Shown: positions 1,515 through 23,303 of the stretch, in pieces
How positions within the stretch are numbered: position 1 is the first letter of the stretch
Layout of the letters: every line of letters starts with the position of its first letter
Virus record (IMG/VR): IMGVR_UViG_3300016476_000987
Reading direction: 5' to 3' (one strand)
Source: a virus
Lineage: Duplodnaviria > Heunggongvirae > Uroviricota > Caudoviricetes
Length of the DNA stretch: 64,000 nucleotides
Made by a program: the position numbers and the translations under genes
Notes under the pieces: generated by a model
What the model was told of the DNA's origin: nothing
Databases searched by the model: none
The model's input: the letters and a program-made list of their open reading frames with translations, nothing else

Positions 1515-2852
1515 ATGTATTACATAGTAGAGACTCAAGAACAGCTAAAAAAGTTCAAGAGTTATGATTTTTCTAGATGTATAGTAGATGTTGTAACCAA
1601 TAATGATCATTGGCACCTACTATTATCTCACGTATCCTTGGTGTATATTCGTCCCTTTAGGTCTAGAGCCGGATTTATCATCCCCATAAACCATAGTGAA
1701 TCTACCGGACTAGAGTATTCTGATATAGAGCCTATCATATCGCAGCAAATAGGCCAAATTTACGCTATAGATGCTAAAAGGCTTAGGTACTTTTTTAAAA
1801 GAAAGAAGGCCTTATTTTGCCTTAAAACGGCTTATTATTTGAAAGAGGGCCAAGCTTTTAACGAGAATAATCATGACACGTCTGCTCATAGGTTTTTTAT
1901 GTCTAAGTATGAAGACTATGAAGACATAAATACTATAGTGCCTATAGCAAAACACTATGAGAAATTAGAAGCGATATCTGCGCAACTAAAGAAACACGTA
2001 GCTGTTATAGATGAGCCCTATTACGATTTATACGCAGATGCAGCAATCAAAGTTTTCTCTACTATAGAAAAGTCCGGAGTTCCTACAGATCAAAAAGAGT
2101 TTGAAGCCAATTTTTCTTTAAAAGTACCGGCAGCTTCTTATTACAAAGAGAGGGTTTATACTTCGTATAATCTCTACACTGCTACTGGGAGGCCTTCTAA
2201 TTCTTTCAATGGAGTTAACTTTGCGGCTTTAAATAAAGAAAACAACTCTAGAAAATCTTTTGTAGCTAAGAATGACTACTTTGTAGAGTTTGATTACTCC
2301 TCTTACCACTTAAAAATACTTTGTAAACTTATTAACTATGAATTTCAAGACGAAGACATACATACTCATATTGCAAAGTTTTACTTTGAAAAAGATACAA
2401 TATCTGAAAAAGAGTACATCGAAGGGAAGCAGCTAACTTTTAAATTGCTATATACAGAGTCTAACATTAAAGAAGTAGACAAGATTCCGTTTTTTACTAA
2501 AGTTAGAGAGTTTAAACATTCTCTATGGGAAAAGTATAAAATAGATAAGTATATTCCAAGCCTTAGATCCGGTAGACCCCTCAAGAATATAGATAGCATT
2601 ACTCAGATACTTCCTTACATACTACAGAATTATGAAACGGAAAGAAATATAGAAGTTCTTCAGAAAATAATCTCTTACCTAAGAGGAAAAAAGACCAAGC
2701 TAATTCTATATTGTTACGATTCTTTTCTTTTTGATTACTCAAAAGAGGACGGTAAGGATATTTTATGTAATATTGCAGAAATACTTGAAGAAGAAGGCTA
2801 TAATACTTCTTTTAAGTACGGAAAGAATTACCAAGATTTAAAACAGATTTAA
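1515..2852 (+). CDS. divergent family A DNA polymerase-like protein (polymerase domain only, no exonuclease motifs)
   Basis: TATGRPSNSFNGVNFAALNK resembles the PolA T-x-TGRLSS-x-PNLQNIP motif. EFDYSSYHLKIL resembles motif A (DYSQIELR). GKQLTFKLLY resembles motif B. LYCYDSFLFDY resembles motif C (HDE changed to YDS). Confidence 0.6.
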   Translation: MYYIVETQEQLKKFKSYDFSRCIVDVVTNNDHWHLLLSHVSLVYIRPFRSRAGFIIPINHSESTGLEYSDIEPIISQQIGQIYAIDAKRLRYFFKRKKALFCLKTAYYLKEGQAFNENNHDTSAHRFFMSKYEDYEDINTIVPIAKHYEKLEAISAQLKKHVAVIDEPYYDLYADAAIKVFSTIEKSGVPTDQKEFEANFSLKVPAASYYKERVYTSYNLYTATGRPSNSFNGVNFAALNKENNSRKSFVAKNDYFVEFDYSSYHLKILCKLINYEFQDEDIHTHIAKFYFEKDTISEKEYIEGKQLTFKLLYTESNIKEVDKIPFFTKVREFKHSLWEKYKIDKYIPSLRSGRPLKNIDSITQILPYILQNYETERNIEVLQKIISYLRGKKTKLILYCYDSFLFDYSKEDGKDILCNIAEILEEEGYNTSFKYGKNYQDLKQI

Positions 2853-2881: not shown

Positions 2882-3310
2882 ATGTTATACGATGAAATAG
2901 ATGTTATAATTGACGATCAATTGAACAAACTTTTTTGTACATTTACGCAGAAGGATGATTTAGAAGAGACGATTACTAAAATCGGCTCAATGTATTCGGT
3001 TATTTATTCTAAAATTTTTGTTTTGGAGATCGCCGATAGCAGCGAATTTGTATGTACATATAATATTGAATCGGAAAACACAGATCGCTCCAAGATTATT
3101 CCTGGAACTATTCTGATGCATCGTAGAAAAGAGACTGATACCCTCTACACAATTAATTCTTTAAACCTTCTCATTGCCAGCCTAAATAATGGAGTAGTTG
3201 ATAAGACATTCAAAATCAACTGGTCCGATTATAGAAATAGTATCCTCCTCACCAGAGCTGGCCAATTCACCCAACTGAACACAAAAGTCCACAAGATTAT
3301 TGCTCTCTAA
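2882..3310 (+). CDS. hypothetical protein
   Basis: 142-aa ORF in a co-directional gene string. Confidence 0.55.
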   Translation: MLYDEIDVIIDDQLNKLFCTFTQKDDLEETITKIGSMYSVIYSKIFVLEIADSSEFVCTYNIESENTDRSKIIPGTILMHRRKETDTLYTINSLNLLIASLNNGVVDKTFKINWSDYRNSILLTRAGQFTQLNTKVHKIIAL

Positions 3311-3378: not shown

Positions 3379-4221
3379 ATGTCAAACATTGATTTGATCA
3401 AACAGCGCCTTCAGAAATTGCAATCGAAAACCTCAGACAGCAGCTCTCAGGTTGATTACTCCAAGATCTTTTGGAAACCGAAGTTGGGAACACAGATTGT
3501 TCGTATTGTTCCCCGTAAAGAAAACAGGGATTACCCCTTTGTAGAAGTTTCCTTCCATCAGTACAATGTCTTCAAAAAGAGCGTCTATTGCCTGGATGTT
3601 TTCGGAGAAGAGGATCCGGTGCTTCAATATCGGAAAGAGTTGTACAACGAAGGTACTCCAGAAGCCAAAGATCTGGCTAAAAAGATCGCCCCCCGCACTA
3701 AGTATTTTGCACAAGTAGTAGTAAGAGGAGAAGAGGACATGGGGACTCGTCTCTGGGAATTTAACAAGACTACTTACGAAAAGCTTCTTAGCATTATGGC
3801 TAACGAAGACTTTGGTGATGTTACAGACATTATTGATGGTACTGATCTTACGATTGAAGGGTATAAGGATACTGTTGCAATCGGAAAAAAGAATGTAGAG
3901 TACATCGCTGTAAACGTCACTCCTAAAAGAAGGACCTCTCCTCTTTCGGAAAATGCAGAACAAGCTAAGTCTTTCCTTGAAAATCAAAACAACATTCTTG
4001 AAGTCTATAAGAAGTTTACTTATGACGAAATCAAGACTATGTTGAAGAACTATCTTGTTCCGAAAGAAGACTCCGCTGAAGAACCTGTCGCTTCTGTCTC
4101 CGTAGCTGCTCCTGCTAAAGCATCGGCTATCATGGATGACGAAGATGATGAGCCTCCATTTCCGGTAGTAAAGAAGCAGTCCACTGCTCAGAAGTTTAAC
4201 GATATTTTTGACGAAGAGTAA
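3379..4221 (+). CDS. T4 gp32-like single-stranded DNA-binding protein
   Basis: N-terminal FWKPKLGTQIVRIVP resembles gp32 WKLKLD..IRFLP. Acidic C-terminal tail (MDDEDDEPPF...DIFDEE). Sits in the replication module. Confidence 0.75.
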   Translation: MSNIDLIKQRLQKLQSKTSDSSSQVDYSKIFWKPKLGTQIVRIVPRKENRDYPFVEVSFHQYNVFKKSVYCLDVFGEEDPVLQYRKELYNEGTPEAKDLAKKIAPRTKYFAQVVVRGEEDMGTRLWEFNKTTYEKLLSIMANEDFGDVTDIIDGTDLTIEGYKDTVAIGKKNVEYIAVNVTPKRRTSPLSENAEQAKSFLENQNNILEVYKKFTYDEIKTMLKNYLVPKEDSAEEPVASVSVAAPAKASAIMDDEDDEPPFPVVKKQSTAQKFNDIFDEE

Positions 4222-4232
4222 TCTCTAAACTT

Positions 4233-5336
4233 ATGGATGAAAAAAGAAGTGCAAAGAGCGGTCTAACAGCCGCTCTTTCTAAGAAGTCTAGTGCCTTTAG
4301 CCTAGATAATTTTAAGAAATCCAAAAACCTCACAGAAGGGTCTAAGTTTAAAAAGCAAGAGTGGATTCCTCTGTCTCCTGCTTTTAATTCTGCGATTGGA
4401 TTTCCAGGACTGCCTAAAGGACATATTACAGTAATTAGGGGCCATAGCGATACCGGTAAGACTACCGCTATGATTGAGACTGCAATCTCTGCTCAAAAAA
4501 TGGGCCTTCTTCCTGTATTCATTATTACAGAAATGAAATGGTCTTTTGAGCATGCCAAAGAAATGGGATTTGAAGTAGAAGCTATTCCGGATCCTGAGAC
4601 TGGAGAAGTTACCTACACTGGAGAGTTTCTCTACATAGACAGGTCTTCTTTGAATGTGATCGAAGATGTCTCTTCCTTTATCATTGATATTCTCAATGAA
4701 CAGAAAAAAGGAAACCTTCCTTACGATCTTGTATTCTTGTGGGACTCTGCCGGTTCTATCCCTTCTGCTCAATCAGTAGAAGCCAAGAAGAACAACGCTA
4801 TGTGGAATGCAGCAGCAATGTCTATTCAGTTTTCCAACTTTGTTAACCAGGAGTTTTCAATGTCTAGGAAGGCTAGTAGTCAATACACAAACACTTTCAT
4901 TGTCGTAAACAAGGTCAGAGTAGAATATCCGGTGTCAAATCCGATGGAGAAGCCTAAGCTTAGAAACAAAGGAGGCGATGTCATGTATTGGGATGCTACT
5001 CTTGTGATTACCTTCGGTAACATTACTAACTCTGGCGTGTCCAAAGTAGAGGCTACAAAGGATAAAAAGACGGTAGTGTTTGCCAAGAGGACTAAAGTTT
5101 CTGTTGATAAAAACCACATGACAGAATCAAATACCTCTTCTAGGATAGTTATGACAGCTCATGGCTTCATTGAAGACACTCCAACTGCTATTGAGAAGTA
5201 CAAAAAAGAGCATAGGCATGAGTGGCTTAAAGTTCTTGGAGAAGGAGACTTCGATGTGGTATTTGAGCCCGACATGCAGGAGGATATGAAACCCAGGTAC
5301 GAGAATGTTATTGATGATGAAATAGGAGATGAGTAA
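4233..5336 (+). CDS. RecA/RadA-superfamily recombination ATPase (UvsX/Sak4-like)
   Basis: Walker A in GLPKGHITVIRGHSDTGKTT and a Walker B-like LVFLWDSAG. Adjacent to the SSB and FEN genes. Confidence 0.65.
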   Translation: MDEKRSAKSGLTAALSKKSSAFSLDNFKKSKNLTEGSKFKKQEWIPLSPAFNSAIGFPGLPKGHITVIRGHSDTGKTTAMIETAISAQKMGLLPVFIITEMKWSFEHAKEMGFEVEAIPDPETGEVTYTGEFLYIDRSSLNVIEDVSSFIIDILNEQKKGNLPYDLVFLWDSAGSIPSAQSVEAKKNNAMWNAAAMSIQFSNFVNQEFSMSRKASSQYTNTFIVVNKVRVEYPVSNPMEKPKLRNKGGDVMYWDATLVITFGNITNSGVSKVEATKDKKTVVFAKRTKVSVDKNHMTESNTSSRIVMTAHGFIEDTPTAIEKYKKEHRHEWLKVLGEGDFDVVFEPDMQEDMKPRYENVIDDEIGDE

Positions 5337-6372
5337 CAGACTATTGGACATATTCTCTAAAGTCCAAAAAACAGAGAGACCTGCTAACATCCATGCTAAT
5401 AGCAGAGTGTTGATTGTGGATGGAATGAACACATTCTTGCGCAGTTTTGCAGTTGTTAATAGACTTAACCTTTTGGGTCATGAAATTGGAGGGTTAGTAG
5501 GTTTCTTTAAGTCTGTAGGTTCTGCTATAAAAACTATTAACCCGACCCGTGTTATCCTCGTTTTTGACGGGGAGGCCGGGTCGGCTAATAGGCGGTATCT
5601 TTATCCTGAGTACAAAGGAAATAGGCAGCATAATAGAATAATGAACAAAGTTCTATATCAAGATAGAGCTGTTGAGGATGATTCTAAGTATGAGCAATTA
5701 GTTCGTTTGGTAGACTACTTAGAGTATCTTCCGCTGCTAACTATTTCTTTAGACAATTTAGAAGCTGATGACATTATAGGCAATCTAGCATCTTTATCCT
5801 ACAATGGATTTTCTGATAGTGAGACTTATATCATGTCTTCAGACAATGACTTCATGCAGCTAGTAAATGATCGGGTTAGAGTGTATAGCCCTATAAAGAA
5901 AAAGATATATCAAGTAGATCATGTCCTTTCTGATTTTGGCGTACACCCAAATAATTTTGTTATTTACAAAGCTTTGATTGGAGATACTTCAGATAATGTT
6001 CCTGGCGTACAAGGAATAGGAGAGAAAAATGCTCCTAAGTTGTTTGAGTTCCTTTCTCAAAGCGATAGAAAAGACTTGGATTATTTATTTGAAGTATGTG
6101 CTAACCCTCCTAAAAAGTCTGTGCTTTATGATAGAGTACTGAATGTAAACAAAAATGTTGATATTTTTTATAGGATCATGGACCTAGTAAATCCTAATAT
6201 TTCAGATGAGTACAAAGAACTAATTAAAACAAAGTTTTATGATCCAATCCCCGAATTTAAAAAGCATGAGTTCATAAAGTTGTATAATTATGATAGAATG
6301 GGAGATGCTATCCCTAATTTGGATAGCTGGTTAAATGTTTTTATACCTTTGAATAATTATAGGCAGTTATGA
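5329..6372 (+). CDS. 5'-3' exonuclease / flap endonuclease (T4 RNase H / T5 D15 family)
   Basis: PIN-like motifs VLIVDGMN, VFDGEAGSANRRYLYPEYKGNR, LEADDIIG and SSDNDFMQL, plus the H3TH motif IGDTSDNVPGVQGIGEKNA. Confidence 0.9.
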   Translation: MSNRLLDIFSKVQKTERPANIHANSRVLIVDGMNTFLRSFAVVNRLNLLGHEIGGLVGFFKSVGSAIKTINPTRVILVFDGEAGSANRRYLYPEYKGNRQHNRIMNKVLYQDRAVEDDSKYEQLVRLVDYLEYLPLLTISLDNLEADDIIGNLASLSYNGFSDSETYIMSSDNDFMQLVNDRVRVYSPIKKKIYQVDHVLSDFGVHPNNFVIYKALIGDTSDNVPGVQGIGEKNAPKLFEFLSQSDRKDLDYLFEVCANPPKKSVLYDRVLNVNKNVDIFYRIMDLVNPNISDEYKELIKTKFYDPIPEFKKHEFIKLYNYDRMGDAIPNLDSWLNVFIPLNNYRQL

Positions 6373-7718
6373 CAGCAAATAAGCTAAATCAGTACGGTTA
6401 TTCTTTTCAGTTAAAAGTTCTCTATTCTCTACTAAACGACAAGCCCTTTCTTCAAAACATCTCAGATGTAATACAAGTAGAGTTTTTTGAGTCTCCGGCT
6501 CACAAATGGATTGTTACTACGATACTTGAATATTATTCCAAGTATCACACTTTCCCCACAATGGAAGTGGTTAAGATCGAAATGATGAAAGAACAGAACG
6601 AAGTTCTTCGTCTTTCGATTAAAGAGGAGCTAAAACACATATACACTACCGCTCACGATGAAATTGAGTACGTAAAAGAGGAGTTTTTTAATTTCTGTAA
6701 GAACCAAAGACTTAGGGATGCTCTTCTTACTTCCGTAGATCTTCTTAAAGGAGGAGAATACGAAGGTATCCGAAAGATCATTGATGAAGCTCTCAAAGCC
6801 GGTAATGATAAACAAATCGGACATGAGTATGAAAAAGATATTGAGTCTAGATTTAGAGAAGAAGAAGATAAAAAGATTCCTTTTCCTTGGAAGGCTTTTA
6901 ATGATGCTACCGATGGGGGAATTGGATCTGGTAATCTTATGCTTCTATTTGCTCCTCCTGGCATAGGAAAGTCCACAGTGGTTTGTAATATCGCTGCCCA
7001 TGTATTGAAAATTGGATATAAAGTAGTCTACTATACTTTGGAATTGGATGAAAGGTACGTAGGTAAAAAGATAGACTCTATTCTTACCGGTATTGATGTT
7101 AAAAACCTAAAGCATCACCGTAAAGAAGTAGAAAAAGCAGTAAAAGATCTTAAAGGCCGGATTGTAATCAAGGAGTACTCTCCTAATCGTGCTTCTCTTG
7201 ACACTATAGAATCTCACCTGAGGCAATTAGAGGCCAATAGCGACTTCGTTCCGGATATAGTTATCATTGACTACCCTGACCTTTTAAGGCCCAGGAAGAT
7301 AAGGAAAGCGACCATAGAAGAGATTGATGACATCTATGTGGATGTTAAAGGTCTTGCTAAAGACTTAAAGATTCCCGTAGTAGCACCTTCCCAGATTAAC
7401 AGGATGGGAGCAAGGGATGAAATCATCGAAGGAGATAAAGTAGCCGGTAGTTTTAGTAAGATGATGATTGCAGATCTCAGCATCTCTCTTTCTAGAAAAA
7501 GAAAAGACAAACTTAACGGTACCGGTCGATTTCACTTTATGAAATCCCGTCTTGGGCCCGATGGTATGACCTATGAGGCAAAGATTGATCTCAATAAAGG
7601 TTATATCGAAGTATCAGAGGAACTGTATGATGAAGCTTCAGGAGATTCAGATGGAGGGAATGGGGATTTTTCAGCTGATGAACTAGACAAATTGAAGAAC
7701 AAGTTTCTAAAAGGATAA
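6369..7718 (+). CDS. DnaB-family replicative helicase
   Basis: Walker A LLFAPPGIGKST, Walker B IVIIDYPDLL, SQINR (DnaB H4-like motif), and an N-terminal helical domain. Confidence 0.85.
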   Translation: MTANKLNQYGYSFQLKVLYSLLNDKPFLQNISDVIQVEFFESPAHKWIVTTILEYYSKYHTFPTMEVVKIEMMKEQNEVLRLSIKEELKHIYTTAHDEIEYVKEEFFNFCKNQRLRDALLTSVDLLKGGEYEGIRKIIDEALKAGNDKQIGHEYEKDIESRFREEEDKKIPFPWKAFNDATDGGIGSGNLMLLFAPPGIGKSTVVCNIAAHVLKIGYKVVYYTLELDERYVGKKIDSILTGIDVKNLKHHRKEVEKAVKDLKGRIVIKEYSPNRASLDTIESHLRQLEANSDFVPDIVIIDYPDLLRPRKIRKATIEEIDDIYVDVKGLAKDLKIPVVAPSQINRMGARDEIIEGDKVAGSFSKMMIADLSISLSRKRKDKLNGTGRFHFMKSRLGPDGMTYEAKIDLNKGYIEVSEELYDEASGDSDGGNGDFSADELDKLKNKFLKG

Positions 7719-7848: not shown

Positions 7849-9753
7849 ATGAAAGATTTAGGGCTTGAAGCGTTGTCTAGGATCACAATTTTTTCCAAAT
7901 ATGCGAAATACATTCCGGAACTACAGAGGAGAGAGACCTGGGATGAGATTGTAGATCGTTACGAAAGCATGCTAGTAAAGAAATTCCCGAACTTACAGTT
8001 GGCTATTGTAGAAAATGCCAAATTTATTCGGGACAAAAAAATACTCCCTTCTATGAGGGCCTTGCAGTTTGCTGGTCCAGCTATGGAGGTGAATAATGCT
8101 AGAGGATACAACTGTTGCTACCTTCCTATTGATAGCATTCACGGGTTTAGTGAGACTATGTTCCTGTTATTGGGAGGTACCGGTGTAGGATATTCTGTAC
8201 AAAAGCATCATGTAGCCCAGCTTCCTGAAGTTAAAAAACCCGGAAAAGCTAGGAACTATCTGATCGAAGACAGTATTATGGGATGGGCCGATGCTGTAAA
8301 AGTGCTTATGAAAGCATATCTTGAAGGATCTTTTATGCCTAAGTTTGACTTTAGAGCTATTAGGCACAAAGGAGCACGTCTTATTACTGCTGGAGGTAAA
8401 GCTCCTGGTCCTGAGCCGTTGAAAATTTGTCTTACTCACATTCAGGCTATCTTAGATAGGAAAGAAGAAGGAGAGGCTTTGTCTCCCCTGGAGTGTCATG
8501 ACATTCTTTGTCACATTGCAAATAGCGTTCTATCCGGAGGAATCAGGAGATCAGCTATGATCGCTCTGTTTAGCCATGATGATGAGGAGATGATTACTTG
8601 TAAATATGGTAACTGGTGGGAACTCAATGAACAAAGAGGAAGAGCTAATAACTCTGCTGTTCTTAAAAGAGGAGAAGTAGAAGCTCAGGAATTTTTTGAT
8701 CTTTGGAAAAGAATCGAACTTAGCAACAGCGGAGAGCCTGGTATTTACTGGACTAACAATCTTGAATGGGGAACTAATCCATGCTGCGAGATCGCCCTTC
8801 GTCCCTATCAGTTCTGTAACCTTTGTGAAGTAAATGTTAGCGATGTTACTAGTCAACATGATTTAAACGAGAGAGTAGCAAAAGCGGCATTCTTCGGCAC
8901 ACTACAAGCTAGCTTTACAGACTTCCATTATCTTCGTCCTATCTGGCAAAAAACCACACAAAAGGATGCTCTATTAGGTATTGGTATGACCGGCATTGGT
9001 AGTGGAGAAATTTTGAAATATGATCTAGAAGAAGCGGCTAGTATAGGAATTTCTATAAATAAAGAAACAAGTGATGCTATAGGTACTAACCCAGCCGCTA
9101 GGGTTACTTGCATAAAGCCTTCAGGCACAACGAGTTTGGTATTGGGAACTGCTAGCGGTATCCACGCTTGGCATAATGATTACTATCTTCGCACTATGAG
9201 GTTTAACAAGAACGAAGACTTGGCTGCTTACCTTATGGTAAACCATCCTGAGCTTTGTGAAGATGACCAACTGAGACCTCATGACACTGTATGTGTAAGA
9301 ATTCCTGTTAAGGCTCCTGAAGGTTCTATATTCAGAACAGAGACAGCTATTGATACATTAGAGCGTGTTAAGAAGTTCTCTGTAGAATGGATTAAGGCAG
9401 GACATGTCAATGGAGACAACACACACAACGTAAGTGCTACAATTTCTATTGATAAGAGTAGAATGTATCCCTTCCATGTAGAAAACGGTGAAGTATGGGA
9501 AAGAGATGAGTGGGAAGAAGTAGGTATGTGGATGTGGAACAATAGAGAATTCTATAATGGTCTGTCTGTACTCCCCTACTTTGGAGGCTCATTTGTACAA
9601 GCTCCTTTTGAAGACATCAGCAAGGAAGAGTACGAAACCCGGATTCAGGCTGTCAAAGAAATCGATCTTACTAAAGTATTAGAGCTGGACGATACTGTAG
9701 ACTTTGGAGCTATTGCAGCTTGTGCCGGGGGTCAATGCGAAGTAAATATCTAA
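7849..9753 (+). CDS. nrdJ: class II (adenosylcobalamin-type) ribonucleotide reductase
   Basis: Active-site loop WGTNPCCEIAL (class II TNPCGEI type, not class I NLC-E), LPSMRALQFAG, and a C-terminal Cys pair in ACAGGQCEV. No small-subunit gene nearby. Confidence 0.8.
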   Translation: MKDLGLEALSRITIFSKYAKYIPELQRRETWDEIVDRYESMLVKKFPNLQLAIVENAKFIRDKKILPSMRALQFAGPAMEVNNARGYNCCYLPIDSIHGFSETMFLLLGGTGVGYSVQKHHVAQLPEVKKPGKARNYLIEDSIMGWADAVKVLMKAYLEGSFMPKFDFRAIRHKGARLITAGGKAPGPEPLKICLTHIQAILDRKEEGEALSPLECHDILCHIANSVLSGGIRRSAMIALFSHDDEEMITCKYGNWWELNEQRGRANNSAVLKRGEVEAQEFFDLWKRIELSNSGEPGIYWTNNLEWGTNPCCEIALRPYQFCNLCEVNVSDVTSQHDLNERVAKAAFFGTLQASFTDFHYLRPIWQKTTQKDALLGIGMTGIGSGEILKYDLEEAASIGISINKETSDAIGTNPAARVTCIKPSGTTSLVLGTASGIHAWHNDYYLRTMRFNKNEDLAAYLMVNHPELCEDDQLRPHDTVCVRIPVKAPEGSIFRTETAIDTLERVKKFSVEWIKAGHVNGDNTHNVSATISIDKSRMYPFHVENGEVWERDEWEEVGMWMWNNREFYNGLSVLPYFGGSFVQAPFEDISKEEYETRIQAVKEIDLTKVLELDDTVDFGAIAACAGGQCEVNI

Positions 9754-12181: not shown

Positions 12182-14485
12182 ATGTTTGATAAGAAGTATG
12201 TTTTGGTAAATAGTGAGGAATCGCTAATAGAAATGGTTTCTCATATTAAATCTTTTAATATTATATCTTTTGATACGGAAACTACTTCTTTAAATCCAAG
12301 GAAAGGCAATATAGTGGGATTGTCCGTATCTGCTGAAGTAGGGATAGGCTATTATATGCCTACTTATTTGATGAAAGAAGGAGAGCTTGTTGAAGCAGAA
12401 ATTGCCGGTACTTCTTGTAAAGAGTTAGCCAGAAAGACCTTTAACTTATTGAAAAAGAAAAAGTTAGTAGGTCATAATCTATCTTTTGACTGTAGGTTTG
12501 TTTATCACGAATATGGTATAGACTTAGTTCCAAGCATTTACGCTGATACTTTATTGTTAGTACACACAGTATCTGAAGAAGGTATTGGCGTAGGCGGATC
12601 TTTTGCTCTTAAAGAAATTGCTAAAGGCATACAAGAGCATATAGGATTAGACATGGATAAAGAGGCTAACGAAGAACAGATAGAACTGAAGGCCTCTATA
12701 AAAGCTAATGGAGGGTCTACTACTAAAGAAAACTACGAAATCTACAAGGCAGATATAGATATTCTGTGTAAGTATGCTTGCGCAGATACTGACTTGACTC
12801 TTAGGGTATTTAATCACTTCTCCGACATACTAAAGGAAGAAAAACTAGAGTCTTTCTTTTATGAAGAAGAGGTTATGCCTTTGTATAAAGAAGTAACCAT
12901 TCCTATGGAAATGAACGGAGTTCTATTAGATATAGAACTCATGGAATCATCTAGAAAAGAAATAAAAGAAGACCTAGCTAAATACAAAAAGTTAGTTATT
13001 TCAGAACTTCTTAAAGATGATAGAGTTAGGGATTGGGTAGTAGCGAAAGCCATAACAGAGTTCCCAACCAGCAATAAAGGGAGGTTTGTCCAAGAATTGA
13101 TAAAAGTAACCGGCCAGGAATTCCCAGTATCTGCTAAAACCGGAAAATACTTAGTAAATGCTACTAATGTAAAATTGTGTGCTAATGAAGAGACTAAAGA
13201 GTTTCTTCTTACGGGAGATCCTAGTCTTATAGATGAAAATCTGTCCCTTAAAATAAGCATATCTTTATGGAAGGAAACTCAAGACGGAGATTTCTTTAAC
13301 ATACAATCCAAAGATCATTTAGGTCAAATAGCTTTTACTGCACTAGGAATGACTCCTATATCTACTACAGATAAAGGAAAGGCTCAATTCGATGATGATT
13401 TTATTCAATCCATCTCTGATAAACATGAGTGGGCTAAGAACTTACGCATATACAATAAACTGCTGAAGATAAAGTCTACATACATGGACCGGTTCCTTGA
13501 AAAGCAAGAGAATGGGATGTACTACTTTTACTATAAGCAGCATGCCACAGTATCCGGAAGATATGGATCAGACGCTCAACAGCTACCCAGACCTAAAGAA
13601 GAAGGAGAAGAGGACCCTATTGTACTGAAATACAATAATCTTATACGGGCTTTCTTTATATCAAAACCAGGGAACGTGTTTATTGATTGTGACTATGAGT
13701 CTTTGGAGCCTAAAGTATTCTCTCATGTATCTGGAGATGAAGGATTAAAGGACATTTTTAAGAATAATTGGGACTTTTACTCTACGATTGCTATAAAAAC
13801 TGAGAAGCTGCATCAGTACTCACCTGACAAAAAGGCACCCAACTACCTAAAGAAACTGGCAAATGATGTAAGACAGAAGGCTAAGGCATACTCTTTGGGG
13901 ATTGCTTATGGCATGGGAGCCTATGCTTTAGGTAAAAATATCAACGTTTCTACCAAAGAAGCAGAGAAGCTTGTCGAAGGTTATCTAAATGGGTTTCCTG
14001 AATTGAAAAGGTGGATGGAAGAATCCAGAGAGTTTGTAAAGAAAAACGGCTATATTAAAACTCAAGTAGGAAGAGTTCGACATTTATCAAAAGTTTCCTA
14101 TCTTTACAAGAAGTTTGGAGATAATCTTTTAGAATGGGATTATCAAAGAAAGCTAGAAGAAAAGCTAGGTAAAGACTTGGTTGTGAATATGGTAAGGGAT
14201 TATAAGAACGGTTTGAATAATGCAATGAACGTACAGATTCAAGGCTTAGCAGCATCTATTGTTAATAGGTCTGCTATAGCTATAAACCGTGCTTTTAAAG
14301 AAGCCGGAATAAAAGGACAAGTAATTGCACAGATTCATGACCAGTTAGTTATGGAAGTAGAAGAGGCAAGAGCGGAGGAGGCATCTAAAATAGTACAGGA
14401 TAAGATGGAAAACACAATCAATCTTACTGTAGAATTGAAAGCTCCTCCTGCTCTTGCTCATAATCTTAGAGATGGTCATGGCTAA
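12182..14485 (+). CDS. family A DNA polymerase with 3'-5' exonuclease domain
   Basis: ExoI FDTETTSL, ExoII GHNLSFDCRF, ExoIII YACADTDLT. SGRYGSDAQQLPRP. Motif A DCDYESLEPKVF, motif B RQKAKAYSLGIAYGMG, motif C QIHDQLVMEV. Confidence 0.95.
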   Translation: MFDKKYVLVNSEESLIEMVSHIKSFNIISFDTETTSLNPRKGNIVGLSVSAEVGIGYYMPTYLMKEGELVEAEIAGTSCKELARKTFNLLKKKKLVGHNLSFDCRFVYHEYGIDLVPSIYADTLLLVHTVSEEGIGVGGSFALKEIAKGIQEHIGLDMDKEANEEQIELKASIKANGGSTTKENYEIYKADIDILCKYACADTDLTLRVFNHFSDILKEEKLESFFYEEEVMPLYKEVTIPMEMNGVLLDIELMESSRKEIKEDLAKYKKLVISELLKDDRVRDWVVAKAITEFPTSNKGRFVQELIKVTGQEFPVSAKTGKYLVNATNVKLCANEETKEFLLTGDPSLIDENLSLKISISLWKETQDGDFFNIQSKDHLGQIAFTALGMTPISTTDKGKAQFDDDFIQSISDKHEWAKNLRIYNKLLKIKSTYMDRFLEKQENGMYYFYYKQHATVSGRYGSDAQQLPRPKEEGEEDPIVLKYNNLIRAFFISKPGNVFIDCDYESLEPKVFSHVSGDEGLKDIFKNNWDFYSTIAIKTEKLHQYSPDKKAPNYLKKLANDVRQKAKAYSLGIAYGMGAYALGKNINVSTKEAEKLVEGYLNGFPELKRWMEESREFVKKNGYIKTQVGRVRHLSKVSYLYKKFGDNLLEWDYQRKLEEKLGKDLVVNMVRDYKNGLNNAMNVQIQGLAASIVNRSAIAINRAFKEAGIKGQVIAQIHDQLVMEVEEARAEEASKIVQDKMENTINLTVELKAPPALAHNLRDGHG

Positions 14486-14514: not shown

Positions 14515-15279
14515 ATGAATAATAACTACGTTGTTTACCAACATAGAAGATTAGATAATAATCAAATTTTTTATGTTGGACAAGGATTGTTAAGCAGAGC
14601 TTATCAAAATCAAGTGAACAGAAGAAACACTAATTGGATAAAAGTAGTCAAAGAAGCAGGAGGATTTATAGTAGATATATTAAAAGAAGGACTTAGTAAA
14701 GAGGAGTCTTTGATTATAGAATCTGAGTATATAAAAAAATATGGAACTATAAAACATAACACTGGAATTCTTGTAAATGAAAGACTGTCCGGGAGTAGAG
14801 GAGTAAAAAGTGGCTACACCCACTCTGAAGAAAAAAGAAAAGAGATAAGCGAAAAAACAAAAAAAGCCATGCAAAATCCGGAAACAAAAAAAAGATTAAT
14901 AGAAAGTCATTTAAAATATTGGGAAAATTCGGAAAATCATATAAAAGCTTCTATTTCTACTAAAGGAGTTCATGCTGGCAGTAAACACCCAATGTACGGT
15001 AAAACTCATTCGGAAGAGTCTAAAGATAAAATGTCAAAAGCTAAATTAGGAAAAAAAAGATCTTTAGAAGCAATTGAAAAATTAAAAAAAAGAATTCCTT
15101 GGAATAAAGGACTTAAAGGAGCATATAAACAAAAACAAGAGACTATAGAAAAAAGAAAAAATACTTTAAAAAATAGACCCTATACTCCTCAAAAAAAAGT
15201 AGAATGTCCTTATTGTAAATTAATAGGCGGTTTTACTAATATGAAAAGATATCACTTTGATAATTGCAAAAACAAATAA
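14515..15279 (+). CDS. GIY-YIG homing endonuclease with NUMOD3-like repeats
   Basis: N-terminal YVVYQH..IFYVGQG and a conserved Glu region ESLIIESEYI. Repeated GxTHSEExK segments (GYTHSEEKRKEISEK, GKTHSEESKDKMSKAK). C-terminal CPYC...FDNC. Lies directly after polA. Confidence 0.75.
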   Translation: MNNNYVVYQHRRLDNNQIFYVGQGLLSRAYQNQVNRRNTNWIKVVKEAGGFIVDILKEGLSKEESLIIESEYIKKYGTIKHNTGILVNERLSGSRGVKSGYTHSEEKRKEISEKTKKAMQNPETKKRLIESHLKYWENSENHIKASISTKGVHAGSKHPMYGKTHSEESKDKMSKAKLGKKRSLEAIEKLKKRIPWNKGLKGAYKQKQETIEKRKNTLKNRPYTPQKKVECPYCKLIGGFTNMKRYHFDNCKNK

Positions 15280-19574: not shown

Positions 19575-21014
19575 ATGAAAGAAGGTTATATTAAAAAAGA
19601 AGATAGAAAAAAGATTTTATTAATCTCAGACGACATTAGATTTTTTTCCGGTATCGCCACAGTGTCCAGGGAAATTGTTATTGGAACAGCACATCATTAT
19701 AACTATGTATGTATCTGTGCTGCTCTGCAACATCCGGACAAAGGCAAAAGAATGGACCTTAGCGAATCCACAAACCAAATAACTGGTATTACAGATTCAG
19801 ATGTTACTATTTACCCTTATGATGGTTATGGGGATGCCGATTTTGTAAGAAATTTGATAAAATACGAGAAGCCTGATGCTCTGTTTTTTGTAACAGATCC
19901 CAGGTATTACACTTGGCTTTTTGAAATAGAGAATGAAATTAGGAAAAAAATCCCAATGATTTATTTGCAGATTTGGGATTGCGAACCGGCTCCTCTTTAT
20001 AATAGAGAGTTCTATCGTAGTTGCGATGCCTTATTAGCTATTTCTAAACAAACAGAAATACTTAATAAAGTAGTGTTAGGTAAATACCAAGAAGATTGTC
20101 TTATTAAATATGTTCCTCATGGTATTAACAGTAACATGTTTTTTAAGATAGACTCAGGACATGAAAAGTATGAAGAGCTACAAAACTTTAGAAAAGATTT
20201 ATTCGGTAAAAAAGATTTTCAATTTGTAGTCCTTTTTAACAGTAGAAACATTCGTAGAAAATCTCTCCCGGATACTATTGTAGCTTTTAAATTATTACTG
20301 GACTCTATGTCTCCTGAAGAAGCGGATAAGTGCTGCTTAGTGCTTCATACACATCAAGTAGATGAAAATGGAACTGATCTACCAGCAGTAATTGAAGTAT
20401 TTTTAGGGGACAGGAAAGACCAAGTAATCTTTTCTAACCCTGGATTAGACACCGGTAGAATGAACCTTCTGTATAATCTTGCAGATGTTACAGTACTAAT
20501 AAGTAGTAACGAAGGATGGGGCCTCTCTTTAACAGAGAGCCTAATGTCTGGCACCATGATTATTGCGAACGTAACAGGAGGCATGCAAGATCAAATGAGG
20601 TTTGAAGACGAGAATGGAGATTGGATAGAGTTCACAGAGTCTTTCTGTTCTAATCATTTTGGAAAGTATAAGAATTGTGGAGAATGGGCTATCCCTGTAT
20701 TTCCTTCTAATATTAGTATCCAAGGATCTGTGCCTACTCCTTACATCGCTGACGACAGAGCAGACTTTAGAGACGTTGCTAATGCTATGAAGCAAGTATA
20801 CGGTATGTCTAAAGAAGAAAGGATTAGCAGAGGAATGAAAGGACGAGAGTGGGTAACTTCAGACGAGGCTATGATGACTGCTGATAATATGTGTAAAAAC
20901 GTCATAGAAGCAGTAGATCAAACTATAGAGGAGTTCAGCCCTAGAAAAAAATATTATATCATAAACACAAATGATAGAGATAAGAAAACTCTTGCTTTCC
21001 CTCTTTCTTTATAA
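19575..21014 (+). CDS. GT-B glycosyltransferase (GT4-like)
   Basis: E-x7-E region SSNEGWGLSLTESLMSGTMIIA. Confidence 0.7.
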   Translation: MKEGYIKKEDRKKILLISDDIRFFSGIATVSREIVIGTAHHYNYVCICAALQHPDKGKRMDLSESTNQITGITDSDVTIYPYDGYGDADFVRNLIKYEKPDALFFVTDPRYYTWLFEIENEIRKKIPMIYLQIWDCEPAPLYNREFYRSCDALLAISKQTEILNKVVLGKYQEDCLIKYVPHGINSNMFFKIDSGHEKYEELQNFRKDLFGKKDFQFVVLFNSRNIRRKSLPDTIVAFKLLLDSMSPEEADKCCLVLHTHQVDENGTDLPAVIEVFLGDRKDQVIFSNPGLDTGRMNLLYNLADVTVLISSNEGWGLSLTESLMSGTMIIANVTGGMQDQMRFEDENGDWIEFTESFCSNHFGKYKNCGEWAIPVFPSNISIQGSVPTPYIADDRADFRDVANAMKQVYGMSKEERISRGMKGREWVTSDEAMMTADNMCKNVIEAVDQTIEEFSPRKKYYIINTNDRDKKTLAFPLSL

Positions 21015-21022
21015 TATTAGTT

Positions 21023-21991
21023 ATGATAAAAAGAGCATTAATTACCGGGATCAACGGTATGGATGGTAGTCATTTAGCGGATTTACTATTGACTAAAGGA
21101 TATGTTGTGTATGGTATGGAAAGACGAAAGTCTGTAAAACAAAATACTAACACAAAACATCTAGAAGGGAAAGTTAACTTTTTAGTTGGAGATCTAACAG
21201 ATCAAAATTCTTTAGTAAGAGCTTTAGTAGAATCTGATCCTCATGAAGTGTATAATTTAGCTGCACAGTCTTTTGTAGGAGAGAGTTGGAATACCCCAGA
21301 GCAAACTTCTGATGTAACTGGTTTAGGAGTTCTTAGGGTGTTAGAGGCAATCAGAATGTATGATAAATACAATAAGATTAGATTCTATCAAGCCTCTTCT
21401 TCTGAGATGTTTGGTAGAATGGTAGAGAATCCGGCTACCGAACAAACTCCTTTTTATCCTAGAAGTCCTTATGGAGTAGCCAAGCTATATGGACATTGGA
21501 TAACTAAGAATTATAGAGAGTCTTATAACATGTTCACTTGCAGCGGTATTCTTTTCAATCATGAATCTGAAAGAAGAGGATTAGAATTTGTAACCAGGAA
21601 AATAACTAACGGAGTAGCTAAAATACAAAAAGGATTGGCCGACAGTATTTCTTTGGGAAATCTAGATGCAAAAAGAGATTGGGGATATGCTCCTGATTAT
21701 GTAGAAGCTATGTGGGCCATGTTACAAAGAGATACTCCGGATGATTATGTTATATCTACAGGAAATACTTACAGTGTAAGAGACTTTCTAGACGTTGCTT
21801 TTCAAACAGTAGGAATTTCTAATTGGGAACCCTATGTTAAAATAGACCCTAAGTTTTTTAGACCGGCAGAAGTAGATGTCCTAAGAGGACATTCAGGTAA
21901 AGCTAGAGCCTCTTTAGGTTGGTACCCTAAAACTTCTTTTGAAGATATGGTAAAGATTATGGTTAATAATGATATTAAATTACTAAACTAA
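21023..21991 (+). CDS. gmd: GDP-mannose 4,6-dehydratase
   Basis: ALITGINGMDGSHLADLLLTKGY, YQASSSEMFG, SPYGVAKLYGHWITKNYRESY, GILFNHESERRG. Confidence 0.92.
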   Translation: MIKRALITGINGMDGSHLADLLLTKGYVVYGMERRKSVKQNTNTKHLEGKVNFLVGDLTDQNSLVRALVESDPHEVYNLAAQSFVGESWNTPEQTSDVTGLGVLRVLEAIRMYDKYNKIRFYQASSSEMFGRMVENPATEQTPFYPRSPYGVAKLYGHWITKNYRESYNMFTCSGILFNHESERRGLEFVTRKITNGVAKIQKGLADSISLGNLDAKRDWGYAPDYVEAMWAMLQRDTPDDYVISTGNTYSVRDFLDVAFQTVGISNWEPYVKIDPKFFRPAEVDVLRGHSGKARASLGWYPKTSFEDMVKIMVNNDIKLLN

Positions 21992-21992
21992 T

Positions 21993-23303
21993 ATGAATAA
22001 GTTATCGTGTGTAGTAGCCAGTCCAATTGATACATTTAGCGGATATGGTGTTATGGCTAGAAATTTTGCAAAAGCTCTTCTTAAAATAAGGAAAGACGAA
22101 TGGGATATTAAATTCTTGTCTTTGAGATGGGGAATGACTCCTTTTGGAGCATTAGATGAATCTGATCCTTCAGATGCAGAGATTATGAGTCTAATTATCC
22201 CAGACGGACAACTAAAATATAAACCAGATATTTGGTTTCAGATTAGCGTGTCTGAAGAGTTTACTCCTGTAGGAACGGTAAATATTGGGTACTCTTGTTT
22301 AGTAGAGACTACCATTCTTCCTGGGGAAATGCTTGAAGGGCTCAATAGAATGAATTTTAATCTTGTTTCTTGTGAGCATGCAAAAACTATTGCTACATCT
22401 ACTTCATGGGATAAAGTAGACCAAAATCAGAAAAAAATAGGAGAGTTAGTACTAGAAAAGCCAGTAGAAACTTTATTTATTGGGCTTGATACAGATAAGT
22501 TTAAGAAGCCTAAATCGGTATCTTTTGATCTTTCTAACATTAAAGAATCTTTTTGTTTTTTATCAGTAGGGCATATGCTTCCCGGAGCTGTAGAGTTAGA
22601 AGATCGAAAAATGATGGGAAGATTAATTAAAACTTTCTTAGAGACTTTTAAAGATAAAAAAAACAAACCTGCTCTTATACTTAAAACAGCAACCTCAGGT
22701 TATTCTTATGTAGACCAAGAAAGGACGTTATCTATTATAGACAAAATTAAAAGTACTGTATCAGGAAAAGACCTCCCAAATATTTACCTAATTCATGGAG
22801 AATTAAGTGAACAGGAACTTTGTGAGCTATATTCTCATGATAAAGTAAAAGCTTTTGTACTAACCGGCAACGAAGGTTTTGGTCTACCTTACATAGAATT
22901 TTCAGCAGTATCAGGAAAACCTTTGATTGTGTCTCCCTGGAGCGGTCATTTAGATTTTTTAGATAAAGAATTTAACACTTTTGTATTTGGGGCTATAGAG
23001 CAAATTCACCCAGCAGCAGCAAATAAGTATTTACTAAGAGAGGCTGCGTGGTATAAACCTGATGTAAAAGATCTTTCGGACAAACTTGTAGACATGCATA
23101 AGAATTATTCTAAGTATGTAGACAACGGAAAAAGACAAGGATTTAAATCTAGAACAGAATTTACTATTGATAAGATGGCTGAGAAATTAGACGATATTCT
23201 TAAAACTAATATTCCTCCTATTAGCAAACCCGTTCCCTTATCTTTACCTAAACTAGTTGATATAAAAAAGCCTAACTTTGACTATCTAGAAGAATCTAAA
23301 TAA
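21993..23303 (+). CDS. GT-B glycosyltransferase-like protein
   Basis: TGNEGFGLPYIEFSAVSGKPLIVS (E-x7-E-like motif). Confidence 0.6.
   Translation: MNKLSCVVASPIDTFSGYGVMARNFAKALLKIRKDEWDIKFLSLRWGMTPFGALDESDPSDAEIMSLIIPDGQLKYKPDIWFQISVSEEFTPVGTVNIGYSCLVETTILPGEMLEGLNRMNFNLVSCEHAKTIATSTSWDKVDQNQKKIGELVLEKPVETLFIGLDTDKFKKPKSVSFDLSNIKESFCFLSVGHMLPGAVELEDRKMMGRLIKTFLETFKDKKNKPALILKTATSGYSYVDQERTLSIIDKIKSTVSGKDLPNIYLIHGELSEQELCELYSHDKVKAFVLTGNEGFGLPYIEFSAVSGKPLIVSPWSGHLDFLDKEFNTFVFGAIEQIHPAAANKYLLREAAWYKPDVKDLSDKLVDMHKNYSKYVDNGKRQGFKSRTEFTIDKMAEKLDDILKTNIPPISKPVPLSLPKLVDIKKPNFDYLEESK

Follow-up and report, generated by a model that had tools for sequence, protein, structure and literature searches.

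A compact second family A DNA polymerase

In the window analysed here, a 64-kb stretch (64,000 nucleotides (nt)) of the Caudoviricetes virus record IMGVR_UViG_3300016476_000987, the gene at 1515-2852 on the + strand encodes a compact family A DNA polymerase of 445 amino acids (aa), which almost certainly belongs to divPolA1. This kind of phage enzyme was published in 2024 on computational grounds, and the window gene is a further member of it. A regular, exonuclease-positive (exo+) PolA is encoded in the same window. These results support the initial annotation of this DNA, which had proposed from the letters alone that a complete exo+ PolA is accompanied by a highly divergent second enzyme of family A that lacks proofreading motifs. 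The compact gene opens with ATG, 23 nt after the stop codon of orfB (open reading frame (ORF) 964-1491), and ends 29 nt before orfC (2882-3310), within a long run of co-directional genes on the + strand.

A Pfam search with the 445-aa protein returned no match at E ≤ 0.1, so that the gathering threshold of PF00476 (DNA_pol_A) was not reached. In contrast to this null result, comparison with PHROGs matched PHROG_17, 'DNA polymerase', at E 9.3e-6 over aa 212-313, and phmmer against PDB sequences matched the Klenow fragment at E 7.6e-5 over aa 200-316. With a profile built from 32 family sequences, the Klenow match improved to E 3.7e-8, and the Bst and Taq large fragments were also matched. Three independent sequence methods thus link the protein to family A.

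Residue-level alignment to Klenow bore out the family A motifs claimed for the ORF. The stretch TATGRPSN (2178-2201, + strand; aa 222-229) aligns with Klenow TATGRLSS, placing R226 at R668, and SRKSF aligns with IRQAF, placing R246 at R682. Motif A, FVEFDYSSYHLKIL (2280-2321, +; aa 256-269), pairs FDYSSYHLKIL with ADYSQIELRIM of Klenow; the catalytic D260 corresponds to D705, and H265 occupies the position of the steric-gate residue E710. Motif B on the O-helix, YIEGKQLTFKLLYT (2415-2456, +; aa 301-314), pairs YIEGKQLTFKLLY with Klenow RRSAKAINFGLIY, so that K305 corresponds to K758, F309 to F762 and Y313 to Y766, with Y301 at the position of R754. Motif C, LILYCYDSFLFD (2700-2735, +; aa 396-407), pairs LYCYDSFLFD with MQVHDELVFE, and Y401-D402-S403 corresponds to H881-D882-E883. 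Both catalytic aspartates are therefore present (D260 and D402) and the HDE of motif C is changed to YDS, as had been noticed from the sequence.

The family is large. We found 2,235 relatives of the compact polymerase in a collection of 5.8 billion proteins; most of the 120 relatives listed were 433-451 aa long, and many carried a precomputed PF00476 match. When 1.84 billion cluster representatives were searched exhaustively with a profile, 2,059 clusters at 50% identity were recovered with E ≤ 1e-3, of which 701 reached E ≤ 1e-30. Nearly all of the 150 clusters listed fell between 400 and 470 aa, and a few were shorter. With at least 2,000 clusters at 50% identity, the divPolA1 family is far larger than published.

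Conservation and substitution in the active site

Conservation was counted over 260 aligned members, whose identity to the compact polymerase ranges from 27 to 89%. R226, D260, K305, E374 and D402 were found in all 260 sequences (E374 has no mapped Klenow equivalent), and R246, the R682 equivalent, was invariant or nearly so. F309 was Phe in 253 members and Y313 Tyr in 256, while the histidine at the position of Klenow H881 is replaced by Tyr in 257 of the 260 (Y401). This pattern points to strong purifying selection on the active site of the compact family.

At three positions that matter in Klenow, the aligned sequences indicate a systematic alteration of this active site. E710 is replaced by His (H265; 256/260), R754 mostly by Tyr (position 301; Tyr in 207 members, Arg in 14) and E883 by Ser or Ala (position 403; 225 and 34 members, respectively). 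In Klenow, E710 is the steric gate against ribonucleotides, R754 the arginine that binds the triphosphate and E883 the glutamate adjoining the catalytic aspartate. Reportedly, all three positions matter for the Klenow enzyme, and E710 is said to act there as the gate that keeps out ribonucleoside triphosphates (rNTPs).

A truncated thumb and a probably inactivated exonuclease fold

The AlphaFold2 model of the compact polymerase, computed on the family alignment, had a mean predicted local distance difference test (pLDDT) score of 92.8 and a predicted template modelling (pTM) score of 0.90. It predicts a Klenow-like fold with complete palm and fingers, on which motifs A, B and C lie in order. 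The possibilities that the protein has a non-polymerase fold, or that its motif matches are fortuitous, were thus checked: both the profiles and the predicted structure give a Klenow-like polymerase. Among known structures, Klenow, G20c PolA and DpoZ were better matches than Pol theta or Pol nu, and RNA polymerases (RNAPs) were much weaker. A fold search of BFVD for compact viral relatives yielded, among the 50 matches listed, exclusively PolAs of at least 517 aa.

The missing part of the molecule is most of the thumb. In the profile alignment, residues 177-202 of the compact polymerase pair with Klenow chain positions 209-234 (the start of the polymerase domain, 'IERNGVKID') and residues 196-322 with positions 312-452, leaving chain positions 235-311 (about 78 residues, roughly residues 558-634, helices H to I) without a counterpart. 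The thumb remnant (2076-2150, +; aa about 188-212) comprises roughly 20-25 residues, compared with about 100 in Klenow, and the AlphaFold2 model shows just two short helices there (193-199 and 205-208). About 78 Klenow residues are therefore replaced by two short helices. Deletion of the thumb tip in Klenow reportedly lowers DNA affinity and processivity and leaves catalysis unaffected.

The initial annotation had described the protein as lacking a long N-terminal domain, and this description has to be reversed: residues 1 to about 170 (1515-2024, +) form a predicted 3'-5' exonuclease fold of the DnaQ/RNase D type, and it is instead the thumb that is mostly gone. The catalytic DEDD carboxylates of this domain do not appear to be conserved, and no DxE, NxxxD or YxxxD set was conserved in the 260-member alignment. 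At the candidate ExoI positions, aa 25 is variable and aa 27 and 29 are Ile, Val or Asn, in a register taken from a non-significant hhalign comparison together with the published account of divPolA1 (PMC11348598). In that comparison of the N-terminal domains, the local register was plausible at E 0.04 and a probability of 1.3%, which is not significant, and the global mode was meaningless.

A set of mostly polar residues in the apparently dead exonuclease domain was near-invariant in the 260-member alignment: H34, H60, E/D62, D/N86, K88, N139, P143, K146 and E149. The polar ones may mark a site for binding or catalysis that has been retained or newly acquired.

Relation to divPolA1 and other polymerases

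The family was described by Yutin et al. 2024 ('DNA polymerase swapping in Caudoviricetes bacteriophages', Virol J 21:200, PMC11348598), whose section 'Two novel phage PolAs' defines divPolA1 from phage immuto and 13 related phages of 155-190 kb. According to that section, every divPolA1 genome also encodes a regular DNA polymerase (DNAP) of family A, B or C; divPolA1 is followed by replication genes in a conserved order, and the regular DNAP lies in a semi-conserved neighbourhood with GroEL/GroES. It further describes predicted structures in which the palm residues are conserved, the thumb is truncated and the exonuclease is rendered inactive, each of its three catalytic aspartates being substituted. 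Our results agree independently with these points, except that the equivalences of the exonuclease aspartates rest partly on PMC11348598 itself.

In a tblastn comparison, the window protein matched immuto gp001 with 35.2% identity over 98% coverage (E 4e-73), and the two align end-to-end in the same family alignment; the window protein is therefore an additional member of the published family. They share the length class, the truncated thumb, the exonuclease fold (apparently dead in the window protein) and the conserved palm residues. Both phages also have the downstream order SSB (single-stranded DNA (ssDNA)-binding protein)-recombinase-FEN (flap endonuclease)-DnaB, and a regular DNAP elsewhere beside GroES/GroEL. 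The window phage is not among the 14 published divPolA1 genomes, and megablast of the first 20 kb of the window against phage genomes gave no nucleotide match. Three observations appear to go beyond the published section on divPolA1: the family-wide replacement of E710 by His, of R754 by Tyr and of E883 by Ser/Ala; the polar residues kept in the apparently dead exonuclease domain; and an invariant orfC. A search of full-text literature found the family named only in Yutin et al. 2024 and its preprint, and hence no biochemistry or genetics on divPolA1. A PolA reclassification from 2023 (PMC10201439) contains 'broken thumb' subfamilies, and none of its 19 clusters appears to be described with a truncated thumb.

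Compared with the E. coli Klenow fragment (PDB 1d9d, 1kfs), the compact polymerase is about 160 residues shorter, its thumb helices are largely absent and its exonuclease site appears inactive. It also differs in having His for the steric-gate Glu, Tyr for R754 and YDS for HDE. Unlike in E. coli DNA polymerase I, the 5'-3' nuclease of the phage is a separate gene (5329-6372). Taq/Klentaq likewise has a vestigial 3'-5' exonuclease domain; however, Taq retains the complete thumb and the canonical motifs A, B and C and, unlike the compact polymerase, serves the cell as its repair Pol I, to which a 5' nuclease is fused. The divPolA2 of barbaviruses, as described in PMC11348598, is again a second, divergent, exonuclease-less PolA beside a regular DNAP. 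At its N-terminus that enzyme carries an unrelated globular domain; a thumb is not recognisable, and its gene neighbourhood varies, in contrast to the exonuclease-fold N-terminus and the fixed replication neighbourhood of the compact polymerase.

A conserved replication-recombination operon

To describe the gene neighbourhood, the window proteins were mapped onto 80 related IMG/VR loci, and gene order was judged where a locus extends far enough. The order orfB, compact PolA, orfC, SSB, UvsX, FEN, DnaB was found in every locus that was long enough, with only occasional insertions, and it is also kept in Flavobacterium phage immuto. Microcystis phage Mel-JY01 has the same order, with a polymerase that has diverged at its N-terminus.

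Immediately upstream of the polymerase, orfB (964-1491, +; 175 aa) precedes it in most of the 80 loci and in Mel-JY01. Neither orfB nor the ORF at 90-959 received a Pfam or PHROG assignment. Relatives of orfB are 169-320 aa long; in some, the N-terminal 'YTxGxEF...GxYH' motif is repeated internally and the C-terminal tail is Gly-rich. On the other side, orfC (2882-3310, +; 142 aa) directly follows the compact polymerase in every related locus. Its family counts 1,710 proteins without a Pfam domain, and its fold is predicted to be a small alpha/beta unit of the ferredoxin/ACT type, for which no specific structural relative emerged. Given their strict adjacency, the products of orfB and orfC are candidate partners of the compact polymerase.

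The operon continues, all on the + strand, with a gp32-like ssDNA-binding protein (3379-4221; PF08804 E 8e-18, phrog_1192) and a UvsX/RecA-like recombinase (4233-5336; PF00154 E 1e-9, phrog_97 E 2e-20). A 5'-3' exonuclease/FEN (5329-6372; PF02739 E 1.7e-28, PF01367 E 3.9e-11) and a DnaB-like replicative helicase (6369-7718; PF03796 E 3.5e-21, phrog_19 E 2.6e-79) follow. Next comes a single ribonucleotide reductase (RNR) of 634 aa (7849-9753, +; phrog_367 E 1.7e-115, with a weak match to the B12-dependent RNR insertion domain). The same RNR type is present in Mel-JY01 and in several IMG/VR loci, whereas a two-subunit NrdA/NrdF pair occupies this place in immuto; the type of RNR thus appears to have been swapped within the conserved module.

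The regular exo+ PolA

The polymerase at 12182-14485 (+; 767 aa) was correctly recognised in the initial annotation as a standard exo+ PolA. Its Pfam matches are PF00476 (E 9e-67) and PF01612 (E 4e-12), and its DEDDy residues D31, E33, N99, D103, Y198 and D202 are invariant among its relatives. It is 53% identical to immuto gp199. Two features of its polymerase site are invariant among close relatives: Leu at the Klenow F762 position (K568+4 = L572), and HDQ (H719-D720-Q721) instead of HDE in motif C.

A homing-endonuclease-like ORF (14515-15279, +; phrog_314, phrog_655) lies directly after this gene, and a phage GroEL (16272-17945, +; phrog_5725, E 8e-149) follows. PolA, GroES and GroEL are also linked in immuto, and the PolA-chaperonin linkage of the window matches both immuto and the remark in PMC11348598. 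The pair of polymerases is conserved in related phages: immuto carries both, with the exo+ PolA 37 kb from the compact gene, and in contigs L005, L006 and L008 the exo+ PolA lies about 8-10 kb downstream of the compact gene, as in the window. In several contigs, the compact gene occurs together with a close relative of the exo+ PolA of the window.

The compact enzyme had been called a small paralog of its neighbour. We considered recent paralogy of the two window polymerases and rejected it, as the two family profiles could be aligned by hhalign over no more than 32 columns, those around motif A, with a probability of 7%; the compact gene is not a recent duplicate.

Possible roles of the compact polymerase

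The role that we favour, tentatively and at nearly an even chance, is that of a distributive, non-proofreading polymerase for short-patch synthesis or primer extension within the replisome/recombination module. The enzyme would polymerise DNA and be unable to proofread; without a duplex-gripping thumb it would be distributive unless held by a partner, and it would act on short stretches inside the replication-recombination machinery. Candidate tasks are the extension of primers or of invading 3' ends made by the recombinase, and gap filling while the adjacent FEN removes primers. The compact polymerase and FEN would then represent a Pol I-like division of labour spread over two genes, and the exo+ PolA (PolB or PolC in related phages) would perform accurate bulk synthesis. 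With His at the E710 position, Tyr at R754 and Ser/Ala at E883, the enzyme may treat the sugar and the triphosphate differently, for example by tolerating an RNA primer terminus. Such tolerance seems reasonable because the E883 to Ser and E710 to His changes adjoin the primer-terminal and incoming sugars.

Several considerations weigh against this proposal. Phages such as T4, T5 and T7 achieve primer removal and gap filling with FEN plus a single replicase, which leaves no obvious need for an extra polymerase devoted to this work. Two Klenow-important residues, R754 and E883, are replaced, and activity may therefore be low or directed at an unexpected substrate. In addition, the conserved replication context is that of the compact gene, and the regular PolA adjoins the homing-endonuclease-like ORF and GroEL (see also PMC11348598), so that the compact enzyme could itself be the core replicase.

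This last possibility, which we regard as rather unlikely, holds that the compact enzyme is the core (ancestral) replicase, with a tether provided by DnaB, SSB or orfB/orfC in place of the thumb, and that the exo+ PolA, PolB or PolC is an interchangeable auxiliary, for example for proofreading in trans or for repair. It is the alternative favoured by the context argument of Yutin et al. (PMC11348598), in which the regular polymerase varies in family and sits in a non-replication neighbourhood with chaperonins. Consistent with this, the compact gene invariably heads the SSB-UvsX-FEN-DnaB module, orfC is present in every locus, and the orfC and polymerase families are similar in size (1,710 vs 2,235 proteins). 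However, the absence of proofreading and of most of the thumb weighs against it, as does the regular DNAP that is universally present. A further alternative, which we consider unlikely, is a translesion or damage-tolerance polymerase with a role like those of the exo-minus Pol theta and Pol nu, acting with the recombinase on ultraviolet-damaged phage DNA in surface waters. The better structural matches to Klenow, G20c PolA and DpoZ argue against it, and the characteristic insertions of Pol theta and Pol nu, which were not specifically looked for, cannot fit in 445 aa. Moreover, the gene lies in a constitutive replication operon and not in a damage-response context.

The motif C of T7 RNAP reads 'HDSF', and the 'DSF' of the compact polymerase resembles it. 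This likeness would fit an RNA-related enzyme, either one that uses NTPs (a PolA-derived primase-like or T7-type RNAP-like enzyme) or an extender of RNA primers; we hold this to be improbable. F309 and Y313 are DNAP-like, the structural matches to RNAPs are much weaker, and the compact polymerase does not show the features of a T7-like RNAP (an N-terminal promoter-binding/AT-rich recognition domain, a specificity loop and a small steric-gate residue). No primase homologue was found within the 64-kb window, and we considered a PolA-derived primase for a phage without a primase of its own; this idea was weakened by the DnaG-type primase of immuto (gp091, located at 104 kb). A structural or accessory subunit without catalytic activity, as had also been envisaged in the initial annotation, would account for the absence of the Klenow R754, E710, E883 and H881 equivalents and for a score below the PF00476 threshold. 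Nevertheless, the metal-ligand Asp pair and the K758, R668 and R682 equivalents are invariant or nearly so down to 27% identity, as is E374 throughout; a dead active site would not be expected to be conserved in this way, and we consider a pseudo-polymerase very improbable. Nothing pointed to the terminal-protein-style initiator that had been suggested as well. Finally, and distinctly unlikely in our estimation, divPolA1 could be a re-engineered enzyme with a new substrate logic, a 'primer extender' like Pol alpha/DnaE that hands off to a replicase of family A, B or C. In that case His at the steric gate, Ser in motif C and the missing motif B Arg would be adaptations to RNA primer termini or non-canonical nucleotides. 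The exonuclease domain (H34, H60, E/D62, K88, K146, E149) would have gained a new binding or catalytic function, and the 142-aa orfC would be a DNA-holding subunit in place of the thumb.

Whichever role applies, the compact family is abundant in aquatic viral metagenomes, and its linkage with the core genes for replication and recombination is strict in a whole group of large myoviruses (155-190 kb). The role of a thumb-truncated, proofreading-dead PolA beside a swappable regular polymerase bears on the division of labour in two-polymerase phage replisomes. At about 50 kDa and with an unusual steric-gate residue, the protein could be a compact enzyme of biotechnological interest. Its abundance, small size and unusual, strictly conserved active-site substitutions make the family of interest as an experimental target.

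Other features of the window

Compared with immuto (L001, L108, L109), the 64-kb window contained no homologue of the DnaG primase or of DpdA and QueC (7-deazaguanine DNA modification), which were looked for because they could point to modified DNA; the window's phage may lack these genes or carry them in another part of its genome. Two glycosyltransferases flanking a nucleotide-sugar epimerase (19575-23303, +) parallel the large block of sugar-modification genes in immuto. Further downstream, four transfer RNA genes (Leu-TAG, Leu-TAA, Met-CAT and Arg-TCT) are located at 31343-35902 on the + strand.
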